Notes under the pieces: generated by a model
What the model was told of the DNA's origin: nothing
Databases searched by the model: none
The model's input: only the letters and a program-made list of their open reading frames with translations
In this document: positions 14,323 through 60,679 of the stretch, piece by piece
How the letters are laid out: each line of letters starts with the position of its first letter
Numbering within the stretch: position 1 is the stretch's first letter
IMG/VR virus record: IMGVR_UViG_3300021431_000075
Coordinates: 480,001-544,000 of that record
Source: a virus
Lineage: Duplodnaviria > Caudoviricetes
Direction: 5' to 3' (one strand)
Length of the DNA stretch: 64,000 nucleotides
Program-made: the position numbers and the translations under genes

Positions 14323-14330
14323 TTCTGATG

Positions 14331-14406
14331 TAGCGCAGACGAGACTCGAACTCGCATGACTCTACGTCCCGAACGTAGTCGGACACCAATTACCGGTTAC
14401 TGCGCT
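14331..14406 (-). tRNA. tRNA-Pro, anticodon CGG (no encoded CCA)
   Basis: Acceptor AGCGCAG/CTGCGCT+A; anticodon arm CTACG-TTCGGGA-CGTAG; T arm GCGAG-TTCGAGT-CTCGT; TGG in the D loop. Confidence 0.88.
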
Positions 14407-54408: not shown

Positions 54409-54882
54409 TTATTGTTCTTCTTCAACTTCAAAATTTTCAAGATTTGTAGATGGTTTCTTGCTCTTTCTTCCGTTCTTTGACGGACTCTTTTTCTCTTGAC
54501 TGTTTTCAACAGGTTCTCCGTCAAGCATGTATATGTTTCCTATTTGCAGCGTTTCCGGTTCTTCCATAATCGAGTTAGAGTCTATCGACTGTATATTTAG
54601 AATCTGTGAGAAAGATGCTTCGAACTTTTCGATTCTTTGCGTCAGGTTATTGAGTTGCTCATTGATTTTCACGAACTCGTCGCTGTTGTTGTTCTTCAAA
54701 TCTTCGTAGTTGACAGACAGTTCATCGAACTTCTCGTTGACTGTATCAACAGAATCGACAAGATCTCCGATGCCTTTCTTTTTGCCGCCGAGAATTACAA
54801 GAACAAGCATAATTATCTGAACTACAAATACTAATAATATTAATGTCGTTTGTAGTCCGCTGCTTAATAAAAGTGTTACCAT
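54409..54882 (-). CDS. Membrane-anchored coiled-coil protein
   Basis: N-terminal hydrophobic helix followed by a coiled coil; overlaps the M13 gene stop. Confidence 0.65.
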   Translation of the reverse strand: MVTLLLSSGLQTTLILLVFVVQIIMLVLVILGGKKKGIGDLVDSVDTVNEKFDELSVNYEDLKNNNSDEFVKINEQLNNLTQRIEKFEASFSQILNIQSIDSNSIMEEPETLQIGNIYMLDGEPVENSQEKKSPSKNGRKSKKPSTNLENFEVEEEQ

Positions 54883-56894
54883 AATTTCGCTCTTCTTTCT
54901 TTGTTTATATATAATTTATCATTCTTGCTTATTTTGAATGCTGAATACCACTCGTCGAACATCGGAAGTGTGCCGTTCACCCTGATGTAGTTGGGGCAAT
55001 GCTCGTCATTTTCTATTCTGTGCTTGATGACTTCTTCTGTCGATACGCCAGCCCAGCAGTTTGCAAAGTTGAGGAAGAAACGCTTCTTCCAGTCATAGCC
55101 GTCCTTCATCATTCCGTTCTTTCCGTACAGTTCTGCTTCGCTGAACATCGGTTCTCCGCGGTCATCTTTCATTGCAAGCAGTTCAGACAGGTATCGAACT
55201 TTTTCACCGTATATCATCTTAAGCGCGTTGTATGCAATCTTGAGACCGCCAAAGTCTGCGATATTCTCATTCAGCGTCAAGTCTCCGTTGCACTTGATTC
55301 CGGGAAGCGCGTAAATCTCGTTGAAATGGTCTCTTGTGTTCTCGGATAGTTCGTCGAACTCCTCACTTTCATCATCAGTCCACCAGTCGAACACGTTTCC
55401 GTCTATGCCGAACAGTCTTCCATAACTGTCAAAGCCGTGTGTCATCTCATGACCGATAATAACACCTATGCCCCCATAGTTGTCCGAATCATCCGCATCC
55501 TTGTTGAAGAACGGTTCCTGCAATACAGCTGCAGGAAAGCAAATCTCGTTCTTCATCGGACTGTAGCATGCATTGACTTTGTGTGCATACATCGGCCACT
55601 CTTCCATATCAACATCCTTGTCGAAATAGTCATTGATATATCTATTGTGAGAATATACCATAATCTCCCTTGTCATCTCGAAGTATGACACGTTGCTATT
55701 GACCGGCATGTCGGTATAGTCTTTCCACTTGTCCGGATAACCGACCTTGCACTTCATCATGGAAAGTTTCTTCAATGCATAGTTCTTTGTTTCCGGACAA
55801 AGCCATGACTGGTTTGATATGATTTCAGCATAACTTTTCTTAAGGTTTTCTATCAATAAAATCATCTTGTCTTTCGACTCTTTCGGAAAGAATTTCTCTA
55901 CATACTTCTGTGCAAATGTCTCACTGAAGAAACTTTCAACTTTGTCAAGTTCGCGTTTCCACAGTTCAGGTCTCTCTTTGACGCCGGTCATGAACTGAAT
56001 GAACTCGAATGCGATTTCTTCTATGTCAACTCTTAATGTATCTTTATAATTATCAATAAGATGGAAGATTGCATTGTCTTTCATCTCGACAAGAGTCATC
56101 GTGTTAATCAGTTCAAATGCTTTCTTGATGGCATCAACTTGAGCGATGTTCACTTTCTTCACATCGTTCATTCCGAACCAAGACAAATACTTGTTCAAAT
56201 CAAACTCGACAAGCTTGCTTGCTTCCTCTATATCCATCATATGATAGTTATACATCGGGTCCATGCACAGTTCTTCGATGCTGTATGAAACTTCCGCTAT
56301 CTGGCAGTCAAAGTCAATAACAGTGTCTATGATTCTGTCTATGTCGTTTTTCTGGAAATTGAGGGCAGTTAGAATATCAACCTTGTTCTTTGCAAACTTC
56401 TTCAGAACTTCTTGCTTGTACGGGTCGTTTGATGTGTAATATGACTTGTTGTTCAGAAGGAGCTTCTGTGAAAGCATCACTTCATAGTGGTTCGAATTCT
56501 TGAAATCCGGGACACACTCGACGCATAGCAAGAAATTGTATGCAAGTTCTTTCTGGCAGAATTCAATGACTTCGTCTTTTGTGTTGAAAGACATTATCTT
56601 GTTGATGTACGGAAGCATGACACGTATTCCTTCCGAGTCTCTTTTGTCATAGTTGGACATCGTCTTGTAGAATGTTGCAATCTTGTATGACATGACATCC
56701 CCGCCGCCGGGATTCTTAACAATCTCGTCAAGAATTTCCCGGTTCTGCTGTCTGACTTTGTTCTCTATGACATTCCAGCAGTCCCATTGTGCTTCGTCAT
56801 CAGGTTTCGGATTCAACTCAATCCACTTTCCGGTAGCAAACTTGAAAAAGTCGTCACCGGGCTTTATGTCATTATTAATATACTCTTTGTTCAT
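54876..56894 (-). CDS. pepO: M13 family zinc endopeptidase (PepO/neprilysin-like), no signal peptide
   Basis: PGDDFF...G.W, VGYPDKW, VNA.Y.P..NEI.FPA, GHEMTHGFD, ENIADFGG, R.NG. Confidence 0.93.
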   Translation of the reverse strand: MNKEYINNDIKPGDDFFKFATGKWIELNPKPDDEAQWDCWNVIENKVRQQNREILDEIVKNPGGGDVMSYKIATFYKTMSNYDKRDSEGIRVMLPYINKIMSFNTKDEVIEFCQKELAYNFLLCVECVPDFKNSNHYEVMLSQKLLLNNKSYYTSNDPYKQEVLKKFAKNKVDILTALNFQKNDIDRIIDTVIDFDCQIAEVSYSIEELCMDPMYNYHMMDIEEASKLVEFDLNKYLSWFGMNDVKKVNIAQVDAIKKAFELINTMTLVEMKDNAIFHLIDNYKDTLRVDIEEIAFEFIQFMTGVKERPELWKRELDKVESFFSETFAQKYVEKFFPKESKDKMILLIENLKKSYAEIISNQSWLCPETKNYALKKLSMMKCKVGYPDKWKDYTDMPVNSNVSYFEMTREIMVYSHNRYINDYFDKDVDMEEWPMYAHKVNACYSPMKNEICFPAAVLQEPFFNKDADDSDNYGGIGVIIGHEMTHGFDSYGRLFGIDGNVFDWWTDDESEEFDELSENTRDHFNEIYALPGIKCNGDLTLNENIADFGGLKIAYNALKMIYGEKVRYLSELLAMKDDRGEPMFSEAELYGKNGMMKDGYDWKKRFFLNFANCWAGVSTEEVIKHRIENDEHCPNYIRVNGTLPMFDEWYSAFKISKNDKLYINKERRAKLW

Positions 56895-56929
56895 CGAATA
56901 ATGAATGTAACTTATCTTTCTTTGTTTGT

Positions 56930-57919
56930 CTAAAACAGAGGCTGTGAGTGTACGAGATTGTTCGGTATTTGCTGGTATCCGAGAATGTCAAGGACTTTGT
57001 TGCAGAATGACAATATTGTTTTCTCGAACTGAATATCCATGTCTATGCTGACTCTGAACTCTCCCGGAAAACTCCCCGGAACATAGGCAAATACTTCATA
57101 AGGGTTGTTTGCTGCATTTGAATAGAACCACTTGATTTTATCAGCATTCTTAATCGGGTTGTATTTTACTTTGTACTTCTTGTTCTCCGGCTTGTTCAGG
57201 AAGTAGTTGTACACTCCTGCGGCCTTGATGTGAGCCGGACACTTGTCTGCAATCACAAGCTCTCCCTTGTCTTTCAGTATGTAGTTGTCATAGTTTCCGA
57301 CGGATGAGCCGAACGAAATCATATCCGGGTCCTTGTACTCGAAATCGGCTTTATATTTCTCTATTTTTCCGACAAGCATGTCAAGACTGAGTTTCTCGTC
57401 GTTGTCACGGTACCAGTCAAGAACGAACTTGACGAAGTCCTCCATGCATTCGCGTGCGTATTCGGACGTAGAACTCTTTACAATCTCAAGTCCCTTGTAT
57501 AGAATATGAGAGCCTTTCGGCAAGTAGATGTTAGGCTCCTCCCAGCATTTTGACATCGCATATCTTTTCTTTGCAAAAAGCAGAGTCGTGTCCGCTATCT
57601 TCTCGAGCTCAAGATTCTGTATGTTCTTGTCACAGTTGTATTCTTTTGCATACTCTTCATATTTATTATTCATGTACGGTCCGAGAGAATAGTTCCACAA
57701 GTCAACAACGAACTTCGTTTGATCTTCTTTTGGAACATTGCACCATTTCAAGATTCTTCCGAACTCTACATAAATCGAGTTGTGGACGAGAATTTCGTTC
57801 GCAAAAAACATATGGGTTTCGCCGACTTCGATGTCATATACATATTCATCATCAAAGTCCGGAAGCACTTCGATGCTTTTTATATTTTCTACCTTATAAT
57901 TTGTTTGACTAAAATCCAT
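56930..57919 (-). CDS. DNA polymerase B C-terminal fragment fused to split-intein C-half
   Basis: YVYDIEV...H.FFAN.ILVHN|S intein end, then SIYV, LELE, KKRYA, KGLEIVKSST; ATG at 57919 (the ORF track starts at a TTG at 57931). Confidence 0.92.
   Translation of the reverse strand: MDFSQTNYKVENIKSIEVLPDFDDEYVYDIEVGETHMFFANEILVHNSIYVEFGRILKWCNVPKEDQTKFVVDLWNYSLGPYMNNKYEEYAKEYNCDKNIQNLELEKIADTTLLFAKKRYAMSKCWEEPNIYLPKGSHILYKGLEIVKSSTSEYARECMEDFVKFVLDWYRDNDEKLSLDMLVGKIEKYKADFEYKDPDMISFGSSVGNYDNYILKDKGELVIADKCPAHIKAAGVYNYFLNKPENKKYKVKYNPIKNADKIKWFYSNAANNPYEVFAYVPGSFPGEFRVSIDMDIQFEKTILSFCNKVLDILGYQQIPNNLVHSQPLF
57779..57919 (-). mobile_element. Split intein C-fragment (about 47 aa)
   Basis: Blocks F and G with terminal His-Asn followed by Ser+1. 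Confidence 0.9.
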
Positions 57920-57989
57920 GATTTTTAACAATTAAAACATAAGCAAATAAACTTATAATGTGAAAATATAAGTATTTTCGCTTATAAAT

Positions 57990-58355
57990 TTAGACAGGAA
58001 TCTTGATGTACACGGGAATGTAATCCGTTTGACCTTTTTCTTTGAACAAGATAAACAAATAGTCGGTATCGAATTCAATATCGTTTGTTTTGACAGGATG
58101 CTCATCATCCAGCAAGTCAACATTCACGACGGTTTCTGAAGTTGCTCCGTTCGTGTCTGTGTACTGGATGATTTTGCCGCTCAATGAACCATGTGAATCA
58201 TCAAGAACGCTAAATCTCGTCACATAGTAGTTCTTGATCTCATATTTGCTTTTGTCTGCATCAAAAAACAAGTCATTTGAACCATTTGACATTTCGATTG
58301 TAATGCCTTCTTTTTCATTGCGTATCTTGTACTTTGAAGTTAGCGGATTTTCCAT
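57990..58355 (-). CDS. Hypothetical protein inserted between the split-intein halves
   Basis: 121-aa ORF; no HNH, LAGLIDADG or GIY-YIG motif visible. Confidence 0.7.
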   Translation of the reverse strand: MENPLTSKYKIRNEKEGITIEMSNGSNDLFFDADKSKYEIKNYYVTRFSVLDDSHGSLSGKIIQYTDTNGATSETVVNVDLLDDEHPVKTNDIEFDTDYLFILFKEKGQTDYIPVYIKIPV

Positions 58356-58365
58356 AAATTTAATT

Positions 58366-59409
58366 TTAAATTGTTATTATCTTGTCGGTTTCCGGATTTA
58401 TTTCTTGCGCAGTAACTGATATGAGAATTCCGTCCCTGACGACCATGCAAGAGTGATCTCCTGTCACGATGACTTCTTTGCCGGATTCTGTTGTTATCTT
58501 GTACTTTGACTTCTTGACCTTATGTCGCATGATGTATCTGATTTGTTTATCACAAACTGTATCTGTGCTTGCGTCATATGTCTTTGTCGTTAATGTGATG
58601 TCTGACGGCGCAGGTACGACTTGGGTTCCGTTCGGAAGCATTATTACAGTATCAATGTTCATGTACTTGATTGCAGCGAAAGCGTCTTTGATTGCTATCT
58701 TTTCATCATTTATATCAATAACCGAGTTCCCGTCAATGCTGTCTGTGTCTCCTGCCACGCTTAATGATTCAGTTCCGTCAAGATAATCATATTCTGGACC
58801 GGTCAAAGGCTTTGATTCCGTTGTCTTTCCCTTTGATATGTCGAATGTTCTTGCAAGTTCGGGATTGACTTTTAGTTTGTCCCATAATTTCGCATTTCTC
58901 TTGAACCAGTCGCAGTGACCTTGGCTGTTGTCCTTGATGCATCCGATTAGATCCGGCGTCAGTCTCTTTCCCTTTTTGACAGCAGGGACATAGCTCTCGC
59001 ATTCTTCCCATGTTCCGCTGGCATAATAGTCTTCCGGCTTTTCTTTTGAACCGAAGTCAAAACGTTTTCCATCTTTGTCTATGTGAATCCACTGGTAATG
59101 TAGAATAATGTCCGGATTGCTTTGAAAGATTCCGCTAAAGTACCTGTTCACAGAGTTCTCCGAGAAGTGGTTCAGGTCTCTTCCTTGCGCTGTAATGCTT
59201 TCTGCTATTGCCGTATTGTGTGCAAAGAAGTGCTTACTTCCCAATGCGCCATATACCGAGTTGATGAACTTCTTGATGGCAAGCTGCTTTGTCTCGAAGT
59301 ATCCGGCACGGCTGTGCAAGTCAACGACTTGTTTCTTCAATTCTTCTATTGGACAGTCATACGGATTCTTGAGCCACGCATACTTGAATTTGTCTATTTT
59401 ATTGTCCAT
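58366..59409 (-). CDS. DNA polymerase B fingers/palm fragment fused to split-intein N-half
   Basis: Motif B QLAIKKFINSVYGALG, AESITAQGR, AGDTD| then intein block A SIDGNSVI and block B VIVTGDHS. Confidence 0.92.
   Translation of the reverse strand: MDNKIDKFKYAWLKNPYDCPIEELKKQVVDLHSRAGYFETKQLAIKKFINSVYGALGSKHFFAHNTAIAESITAQGRDLNHFSENSVNRYFSGIFQSNPDIILHYQWIHIDKDGKRFDFGSKEKPEDYYASGTWEECESYVPAVKKGKRLTPDLIGCIKDNSQGHCDWFKRNAKLWDKLKVNPELARTFDISKGKTTESKPLTGPEYDYLDGTESLSVAGDTDSIDGNSVIDINDEKIAIKDAFAAIKYMNIDTVIMLPNGTQVVPAPSDITLTTKTYDASTDTVCDKQIRYIMRHKVKKSKYKITTESGKEVIVTGDHSCMVVRDGILISVTAQEINPETDKIITI
58369..58740 (-). mobile_element. Split intein N-fragment (124 aa)
   Basis: Ser1 directly after GDTD; TxDH block B; ends at a stop codon with no endonuclease domain or block G. 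Confidence 0.9.
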
Positions 59410-59447
59410 TTTTGCTTTTTTGAAAACCGATAAAAACTAAACCATCT

Positions 59448-59478
59448 ATTTTACAAAAAAAATGCCGAAAAGTTTAAA
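59448..59478 (-). promoter_or_regulatory. Phage class-II promoter TTTAAAC-N18-TAAAAT
   Basis: Upstream of the polB N-fragment gene. Confidence 0.7.
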
Positions 59479-59530
59479 ATAAAAAAGACAGAAATCAAAA
59501 TTTCATTGAAAACTGTCTTTTGCTTAATAG

Positions 59531-60679
59531 TTATTTCTTGTCTTTTGCTGTTTTTGAAGCAGTTGATGACTTTGATTTTGCTTTGCTTGACGCAGGTTTC
59601 TTCTTTGTAGCAGGTTTCTTTGCAGGAGACTTTGGCTTTGGTTTTGATGAAGTTGCTGCTGGTTTCTTTTCTTCAACCGGCTTTTCAACTTCAACTGGCT
59701 TTTCAACTTCAACTGGCTTTTGATCTTCAACTGGCTTTTGTTCTTCAACCGGCTTTTGTTCTTCAACCGGCTTTTGTTCTTCAACCGGCTTTTGTTCTTC
59801 AACCTGTTCTTTTTCCAGCGCTTCTGCTTCTTCAAGCATCTGAAGCATGTCAAGAGATTCTGCTGTGAATGGGTCGAGTTGTTCTTCGACTGGTTCTTCT
59901 GCTTTCGGAACCTCGATTTCCACTTTGTTCGGTTCTTCTTGTTCGGAAACCTCTTCAATGACGGCAGCATCTTCTATTGTTGCCACGACCGGTTCTTCTT
60001 CAATCTGTTCTTCTTCAACTGTTTCAGCAGTATCATCAACCCCAACAACTTTATCATCTTCTTCAATGTCATCATCAGTTCCGATGAAATCCCTTATCGC
60101 GTCAGCCATGTCTATTTCAGGCTTTTTGAAATCAACCGGAGCTGCTGGAGCATCTTGTGCTTGTGCCTCTATTTCCTTTATCTGTTCTGGAGTAAGCATC
60201 GTGGATTCTATGGTCTCGCTCTTGCGTGCCTGCTTTATCTTCATCGCTCTCCTGATTTTAGCAAGAGTGTCCTCAATTGAGTTCGCAGGATGCTCGACAA
60301 CCTTGATTCCAGCAGCCTTGTTGCTGCTCTTGTACGGTTCGTTCTCCAGACTTGTATGTTCGTCGAACTCGTCTTCCATCTGCTCGATTCTGTCCTGCCA
60401 GTTCTTGTAGTAGTCTTTCTGGTCGTTTATAATCTGATTCTCCTTAATCTTCATATATGCTTGCGCAGCATTGACATTATGGTTCATCCCTGTTATCACA
60501 TTAGGAACTCCGGTTTCCCAAGTTCCTTCTGTCGGACGCTCCACTACTCCGGAACCGTACTTCTGGTTCGGTCTATAGCTGTTGAAACTGCGGAAATAGT
60601 CTCCCCAGTCGTCAATCATATTGACTCTTGTCGTTGTCGGACCTGATGACAACGGAACATTTTTCTTCTTATTAGTCAT
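59531..60679 (-). CDS. Low-complexity protein: acidic region, (PVEEQK)n repeat and histone-H1-like basic tail
   Basis: 382-aa ORF with a K/A/P/S-rich C-terminus. Confidence 0.75.
   Translation of the reverse strand: MTNKKKNVPLSSGPTTTRVNMIDDWGDYFRSFNSYRPNQKYGSGVVERPTEGTWETGVPNVITGMNHNVNAAQAYMKIKENQIINDQKDYYKNWQDRIEQMEDEFDEHTSLENEPYKSSNKAAGIKVVEHPANSIEDTLAKIRRAMKIKQARKSETIESTMLTPEQIKEIEAQAQDAPAAPVDFKKPEIDMADAIRDFIGTDDDIEEDDKVVGVDDTAETVEEEQIEEEPVVATIEDAAVIEEVSEQEEPNKVEIEVPKAEEPVEEQLDPFTAESLDMLQMLEEAEALEKEQVEEQKPVEEQKPVEEQKPVEEQKPVEDQKPVEVEKPVEVEKPVEEKKPAATSSKPKPKSPAKKPATKKKPASSKAKSKSSTASKTAKDKK
59670..59805. repeat. 18-bp coding tandem repeat (KPVEEQ/KPVEVE)
   Basis: ttcttcaaccggcttttg-type units, about 7 copies. 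Confidence 0.9.

Follow-up and report, generated by a model that had tools for sequence, protein, structure and literature searches.

A predicted split intein in motif C of a three-piece family B DNA polymerase encoded by a 673-kb Lak-like megaphage

Introduction

The PolB1 intein of Aeromonas phage Aes123 splices, its crystal structure has been solved, and the engineered CL and CLm inteins derive from it (PMC11923092). Three more homologues hosted by family B DNA polymerases (PolB) have been characterised, namely CP21 PolB1, LCGC14 PolB2, and GOM-OPS-1 PolB2 (PMC12707363), and the PolB16 OarG intein from a sheep gut metagenome, which is atypically split with an N-terminal half of only 15 amino acids (aa), has been tested (PMC10189870). 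Here, we analyse a 64,000-nucleotide stretch of viral DNA (bases 480001-544000 of IMG/VR record IMGVR_UViG_3300021431_000075; hereafter, the window) in which two neighbouring polymerase genes each carry one half of a putative split intein, the N-terminal half (IntN) or the C-terminal half (IntC), and a third, small gene lies in the gap between them.

Two described gene arrangements are relevant to this locus. In fractured genes, the halves of a split intein flank a free-standing homing endonuclease gene (Dassa et al. 2009; PMC2677866). Gene 43, which encodes the T4-type polymerase, is itself split in some T4-like phages (PMC2677866, citing Petrov and Karam). Such breaks are recorded in existing annotations of related phages. 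In Aeromonas phage Aes508 (JN377894), the order is gp43A, a Seg-like endonuclease, gp43B-1 “including group I intron and N-intein,” an open reading frame (ORF) with a Vsr domain, and gp43B-2 “including C-intein.” Tenacibaculum phage PTm1 is annotated with an “intein-containing split DNA polymerase precursor,” a “VSR endonuclease,” and a “DNA polymerase.” In Campylobacter phage CC_R7, a contiguous intein of 153 aa occupies the same DTD/S site.

Results

Two polymerase genes carrying intein halves

The three genes lie co-oriented on the minus strand, each in a different frame (Table 1). The product of the first gene begins with a stretch of PolB that opens at the second fingers helix, includes motif B (KKFINSVYG), and closes with AGDTD, which forms the first half of motif C. 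The sequence then passes into IntN, which consists in order of Ser1, block A (SIDGNSVIDI), IMRHKV, block B (VIVTGDHS), and KIITI, followed by the stop codon. The NX motif corresponds to R295 and H296 within IMRHKV, and the same region forms a basic patch, RHKVKKSKYK. The product of the third gene starts with MDFSQ...DFDDEYVYDIEVGETHMFFANEILVHN and continues with SIYVEFGR. Its IntC contains block F (YVYDIEVGETHMFFA) and block G (NEILVHN) and ends with YVYDIEVGETHMFFANEILVHN; the extein that comes next opens with Ser+1 in SIYVEFGR, the second half of motif C, and continues through KKRYA, KGLE, and the thumb. All four blocks of a class-1 intein (A/N1, B/N3, F/C2, and G/C1) are thus present but spread over two polypeptides. 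The predicted spliced chain is 505 aa long, has an intact GDTDSIYV motif, and contains the predicted junction peptide GDTDSIYVEFGR.

Pfam Intein_splicing matched both genes, with E = 1.3e-8 for the N-half gene (profile positions 25-89) and E = 6.8e-6 for the C-half gene (positions 119-155), and Pfam DNA_pol_B matched both as well. PHROG 27191, a profile that itself combines a PolB fragment with an IntN, matched at 2e-22. The best solved relative is PDB 9hth_A, which aligned to IntC with E = 0.006 and more strongly to IntN (Table 1). This entry is named only “DNA-directed DNA polymerase”; because it matches the Aes508 intein sequence, it is most likely the crystal structure of the Aes123 PolB1 intein.

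We aligned the halves with those of the phages Lak-A1, Lak-A2, and Lak-B5, the 462-kb phage LR756500, PTm1, and Aes508. Invariant features were DTD/S at the upstream junction, the NX pair R-H, T-x-x-H, VYDIE, the block F His, and HN/S at the downstream junction. Ser1, the terminal HN, and Ser+1 were invariant across 11 close variants and six distant relatives, and the NX R-H pair was also invariant in the close variants. An NX motif of a conserved His preceded by Arg or Lys is specific to Ser1 oxyester inteins (PMC10189870). IntC lacks Cys residues; IntN has two, at positions 63 and 98. Both are kept in the close variants, so the intein is not cysteine-less in the strict sense; neither occupies a nucleophile position, and the chemistry would still be thiol-independent. 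Judged from these sequence features, the element belongs to the naturally split class-1 inteins, is of the cysteine-independent Ser1/Ser+1 type, sits at DTD/S in motif C of a T4-type PolB, and is homologous to Aes123 PolB1.

An initial annotation, made from the DNA sequence alone, had proposed a polymerase broken at motif C with the halves of a split intein on these two genes, and the ORF content, Pfam matches, alignment, and structure prediction described below all agree with it. Its lengths (124 aa for IntN and about 505 aa for the product) were reproduced on recomputation, with 47 aa for IntC. The family searches, alignment, and conservation likewise bear out its assignment to a Ser1/Ser+1 type related to Aes123 PolB1, and its remark that two other Cys lie inside IntN is accurate. 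It had further described an acidic IntC and a basic IntN tail. The former holds (net charge -9), as does a basic patch in IntN, where residues 63-93 carry +6; IntN as a whole is not basic (net charge -2).

Predicted association, selection, and recurrence

Co-folding of IntN (with eight extein residues) and IntC (with 13) gave an interaction prediction score from aligned errors (ipSAE) of 0.88 (0.87-0.89 between runs), whereas the best of three controls scored 0.00. Of 78 solved complexes, 51 reach the mark used for ipSAE, as do 2 of 108 mismatched pairs. At least 91% of contacts agreed, and the partner predicted local distance difference test (pLDDT) was at least 72. In the predicted complex, the basic YKITTE strand of IntN pairs with the NIKSIEV strand of IntC, as a capture step would predict. 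Because split-intein complexes have already been solved, the co-fold shows likeness to them and is not independent proof.

Based on comparison with two natural variants, the ratio of nonsynonymous to synonymous substitution rates (dN/dS) was 0.06-0.13 for IntN and 0.03-0.12 for IntC, versus 0.015-0.02 for the middle extein and 0.02-0.04 for the C-terminal extein. Both intein halves are under purifying selection. Proteins identical to these are encoded on four contigs, from NCBI, JGI, ENA, and Logan, and the lengths of 347, 121, and 329 aa are kept in all 12-15 independently assembled variants, which share at least 90% identity. A large-database search with the IntN region returned 85 clusters of proteins that combine the PolB middle piece with IntN.

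Taken together, homology, catalytic residues, halves that are predicted to be complementary, purifying selection, and a layout that recurs across independent assemblies point to genuine trans-splicing of the two PolB genes, to which we assign a probability of about 0.88. Some observations weigh against this interpretation. The IntN Pfam score (35.3 bits) is slightly below the curated cut-off of 35.8, and that of IntC (26.4 bits) is also below it; such scores are expected because each match covers a half domain. The slight overall acidity of IntN makes the charge complementarity between the halves local, not global. In addition, the Aes123 IntN aggregates, and its in vitro splicing reaches only about 30% (PMC11923092), so efficient splicing should not be assumed here.

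The same evidence bears on other explanations of the locus. The intein halves might have ceased to splice and instead form a noncovalent clasp that holds the polymerase pieces together, and association alone is what the co-fold supports. However, Ser1, NX R-H, T-x-x-H, the block F Asp and His, the penultimate His, the terminal Asn, and Ser+1 are invariant across distant relatives; an unspliced Hint domain of 171 aa between DTD and SIYV would sit inside catalytic motif C; and the homologous Aes123 intein does splice (PMC11923092). We regard a clasp as quite improbable. The pieces could also be decaying remnants of an unused polymerase, as a gene in three pieces scattered over 57 kb might suggest, but extein dN/dS is far from relaxed (0.015-0.04), each PolB motif is intact, every Lak genome retains these three pieces, and the 673-kb genome has no other replicative polymerase. 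Nor were frameshifted PolB alleles found in relatives. Decay is therefore hardly credible.

Another possibility is that the break between the halves is removed before translation ends, by an intron or by a bypassed or recoded gap, or that it is an assembly error, in which case the intein would effectively be contiguous. The group I intron in Aes508 gp43B-1 offers a precedent for removal before translation, and Lak relatives recode TAG (PMC8346664). Against an intron, an Rfam search at E up to 1 across positions 56000-60500 gave only a chance snoRNA match outside the genes. The idea that stop-codon recoding joins the genes was rejected: the IntN gene and the gap gene both stop at TAA, the three genes occupy three frames, and genetic code 11 already gives a coding density of 88% in the window. 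The gap ORF is itself conserved and under purifying selection, which argues against a gap that is simply removed. As for misassembly, the initial annotation had named an assembly error joining the two ORFs as a concern; the layout is the same in the 12-15 independent assemblies, with no joined ORF, and it is found in Lak phages, PTm1, and Aes508 as well. This group of explanations is very improbable.

A polymerase in three pieces

The N-terminal part of the polymerase is encoded just outside the window, on the same strand, by a gp43A-like gene that lies 57 kb downstream of the C-terminal piece. The 532 aa of its product span the exonuclease domain, motif A (DFASLYPS), and the first fingers helix, after which the chain ends. 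In the middle piece, 45 residues precede motif B. Thus, PolB is also broken in the fingers between motifs A and B, without an intein, as in T4-like phages with a split gene 43. This break matches the start point of gp43B-like proteins, as PHROG 1918 (gp43B-like, 382 positions) aligns to the middle piece from its position 16. No family A polymerase (PolA) or Pol III alpha was found in the genome, and the three PolB pieces are therefore its only recognisable replicative polymerase.

An insertion of 74 aa lies between motifs B and C in the middle extein. With a dN/dS of 0.03, it is under strong constraint. It is absent from Lak-A/B/C, PTm1, and LR756500 but present in a more distant relative (L020) and common among many relatives of 340-360 aa. 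An RNA intron was considered as its source and rejected, since there was no Rfam intron match.

Comparison with described relatives

The inteins of Aes123, Aes508, and AS-gz resemble the window intein in their T4-type gp43 host, DTD/S site, Ser1/Ser+1 chemistry, and division into an IntN of about 120 aa and an IntC of about 40 aa, and the polymerase of the Aes phages is likewise in three pieces (gp43A, gp43B-1, and gp43B-2). The Aes508 intein shares 39.5% identity with the window IntN and 47% with the window IntC. The two loci differ in several respects: the window IntN has two noncatalytic Cys; the gap holds a 353-aa Vsr-domain endonuclease in Aes508 but a 121-aa beta protein here; the gp43A-like gene is adjacent in Aes508 and distant here; and the Aes508 group I intron is absent from the window, whose own feature is the 74-aa extein insertion. 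Compared by description, PolB16, CP21, LCGC14, and GOM-OPS-1 also have PolB hosts and Ser1/Ser+1 chemistry, and they share the NX-motif His. PolB16 has GDTD as its N-extein; its atypical split is unlike that of the window intein.

Among named relatives, the Prevotella Lak megaphages are the nearest, with 48-56% aa identity across all three polymerase pieces, and the sequence evidence places the phage, whose 673,114-bp record has direct terminal repeats, as a Lak-like megaphage of 673 kb. The Bacteroidota jumbo phage proposed in the initial annotation fits this placement. All 15 published Lak genomes (MK250015-MK250029, which are unannotated records) carry this intein and the three pieces; we found no description of a Lak split-PolB intein among the papers searched, which included work on the Lak phages. 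In Lak-A1, the three-piece polymerase is orthologous, and identity to the window intein is 48% for IntN and 67% for IntC. Lak-A/B/C differ from the window phage in lacking both the 74-aa insertion and the 121-aa gap protein. The distance of the N-terminal piece also varies widely. It is 6 kb in Lak-B and 57 kb in the window phage; in both Lak-A and Lak-C, the piece lies on the opposite strand, at a distance of about 220 kb.

The layout resembles a fractured gene in that N-extein-IntN, a small intervening gene, and IntC-C-extein are co-oriented and tightly spaced. Among the relatives, Lak-A1, Lak-B5, LR756500, PTm1, and Aes508 have Vsr/MTES_1575-like gap genes. In Lak-A1 and Lak-B5, the gap ORF encodes 372 aa, stays open only when TAG encodes Gln, has weak Vsr/MTES_1575-type matches, and is accompanied by small ORFs; in LR756500, the gap gene encodes a 567-aa protein with DUF7487 and MTES_1575. 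The Lak-A2 gap contains only an 80-aa ORF. The window differs from the fractured-gene pattern in that its gap gene does not encode a recognisable endonuclease.

The gene between the intein halves

The gap ORF is a real, conserved gene. Its dN/dS is about 0.2, and its product shares 63% identity with that of a variant in which the polymerase shares 90%. An exhaustive profile search for the protein yielded 19 representatives, and we inspected ten loci in addition to the window. In eight of them (L012, L013, L014, L017, and L020-L023), the homologue starts 1-13 nt past the IntN stop codon or overlaps it. The IntC gene follows in all eight but L023; that locus is cut short, and a different ORF follows the homologue with no IntC gene seen. 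In L020, the IntC gene comes after one more small ORF (L020:3929-4312; 127 aa, no family), indicating that the gap content keeps turning over. Another locus, L024, has a homologue in a different context.

In the metagenomic relative L018 (L018:1065-1743), a homologue directly precedes the IntC-PolB gene, and upstream lies a gene with no relation to PolB; it appears that the two intein halves have become uncoupled at this locus, with the gap protein staying with the IntC gene. Separately, a 113-aa protein (P0048) has an IntC-like N-terminus, MEFQQSNYKIENIASIERLDDFDDEYVYDVEVDDT, and then the gap protein's second half; the two parts meet at a DDT that they share. It is either a recombinant or a chimeric assembly.

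We found no paralogue of the gap protein in the genome and no Pfam family or nuclease motif in its sequence; its PHROG match was weak. A homing endonuclease or a remnant of one was considered and rejected, given the lack of a Pfam match and an hhalign probability of <1% against the gap genes of Lak-A1, LR756500, and Aes508. BLASTP of the gap protein against the 80-aa gap ORF of Lak-A2 gave no match. Using 19 sequences, AlphaFold produced a confident all-beta model (pLDDT of 92 and predicted template modelling score of 0.84); an earlier model from eight sequences had a pLDDT of 71. Foldseek searches of PDB and BFVD with both models gave no match at E ≤0.001. With VIA-align, the best Z was 4.6, to pairs of beta-propeller blades, and template modelling scores in the Atlas were ≤0.43, so no structural relative was convincing.

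Neighbouring genes and other inteins

TAG terminates only 3 of the 47 long ORFs in the window. The C-terminal PolB gene is one that stops at TAG, and readthrough would add five codons. The window contains a single tRNA gene and no suppressor tRNA.

Directly downstream of the C-terminal PolB gene is a gene for an M13 family metallopeptidase. The same neighbour occurs in Lak-A1, Lak-A2, and the close variants, which indicates that the synteny is old. Just upstream of the middle PolB gene is a gene for a very acidic protein with tandem PVEEQK/PVEVEK repeats and a Lys-rich tail, whose sole match was to a low-complexity “Cementoin” repeat.

Other intein-like sequences were seen elsewhere. A C5 cytosine DNA methyltransferase of 518 aa contains a contiguous Cys1/Cys+1 mini-intein in catalytic motif IV (YSSP/CFVAGTKV...GICVHN/CTDFS), with a Pfam Intein_splicing match at E = 3.3e-13. 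An intein-free paralogue of this methyltransferase (...YSSPCQDFS...) adjoins the PolB N-terminal gene (L001:2-427). Intein_splicing also gave two weak matches in the genome: one to a free-standing Hint-like ORF of 210 aa, with the residues CLDSATPI...TPNHVF...ISHD and no obvious exteins, and one to an intein inside a frame of 944 aa.

Table 1. Features of the split polymerase locus and its surroundings (window positions unless another sequence is named)
Feature	Position	Strand	Length	Evidence or remarks
PolB middle piece-IntN gene	58366..59409	-	347 aa	TAA stop at 58366-58368
PolB middle extein	58741..59409	-	residues 1-223 of the 347-aa product	Pfam DNA_pol_B; PHROG 262/1918 “DNA polymerase”
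Insertion in middle extein, between motifs B and C	58897..59118	-	74 aa (residues 98-171)	Alignment; three conserved Cys
Intein N-half (IntN)	58369..58740	-	124 aa	Pfam PF14890; PDB 9hth_A, E 5.5e-12; alignments
Gap gene, all-beta protein	57990..58355	-	121 aa	Starts 10 nt after IntN stop; conserved homologues
IntC-PolB C-terminal piece gene	56930..57919	-	329 aa	From ATG
Intein C-half (IntC)	57779..57919	-	47 aa	Pfam PF14890 positions 119-155; PDB 9hth_A; alignment
PolB C-terminal extein	56930..57778	-	282 aa	PHROG 1918, 1e-36; PHROG 262, 3e-32; Pfam DNA_pol_B
gp43A-like PolB N-terminal gene	genome 478274-479872	-	532 aa	Outside the window
M13 family metallopeptidase	54876-56894	-	672 aa	Both Pfam domains
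Acidic repeat protein	59531-60679	-	382 aa	
tRNA-Pro (CGG)	14330-14406			
Methyltransferase with mini-intein	L025:1165-2721 (G000:C1:374003-375559)	+	518 aa	Pfam Intein_splicing
Hint-like ORF	L028:1363-1995 (G000:C1:380918-381550)		210 aa	Weak Intein_splicing match
Intein in 944-aa frame	G000:C1:560144-560512			Weak Intein_splicing match

Discussion

Based on these observations, the polymerase would be made as three polypeptides: the gp43A-like protein of 532 aa, the middle piece with IntN attached, and the C-terminal piece preceded by IntC. A single Hint domain would form when the acidic IntC associates with the basic patch of IntN. Splicing would then proceed via oxyester intermediates, with an N-O shift at Ser1 and transesterification to Ser+1, followed by cyclisation of the terminal Asn and an O-N shift to release the gp43B-like chain of 505 aa. 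This chain would work noncovalently with the gp43A-like piece, as in T4-like phages with a split gene 43. That splicing actually takes place, and that replication depends on it, we infer from the evidence above.

The locus fits a stage of the fractured-gene pathway after loss of the endonuclease and before the halves drift apart (PMC2677866). Lak-A1, B, and C keep a Vsr/MTES_1575-like gap gene, whereas Lak-A2 and the window phage do not, and the window locus may represent a fractured gene that lost its homing endonuclease.

The tight coupling of the gap gene to the IntN gene leaves room for a polymerase-linked role of its product. Rather than a passenger, the protein might be a partner dedicated to the split polymerase and produced in coordination with the IntN fragment, although we consider this unlikely. 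One possibility would be a holdase for the IntN precursor, keeping an aggregation-prone protein competent for capture; another would be a new kind of factor for homing or maintenance, having taken the place of the Vsr-like endonuclease. This conserved gap protein, with no known fold match, is the most original element of the locus.

The split intein is another member of a published and common family, and knowledge of inteins in general is unchanged by it. The initial annotation had called it a probably uncharacterised member; this description holds for the present copy but not for its kind, which was already known from the annotation of Aes508, whose intein has undergone biochemical characterisation, the Aes123 structure (PMC11923092), and the homologues described in PMC12707363. 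The new details are the location of the exonuclease and motif A part 57 kb away, the conserved non-endonuclease gap protein, and the 74-aa extein insertion.

Cysteine-independent split inteins are sought after for protein ligation. As a divergent Ser1/Ser+1 split intein with about 40% identity to the Aes intein, the one described here may be orthogonal to existing tools. For the phages themselves, the findings imply that the Lak clade and this 673-kb relative, which are the largest known gut phages, would depend for their replication on a trans-spliced polymerase whose parts are scattered in the genome.

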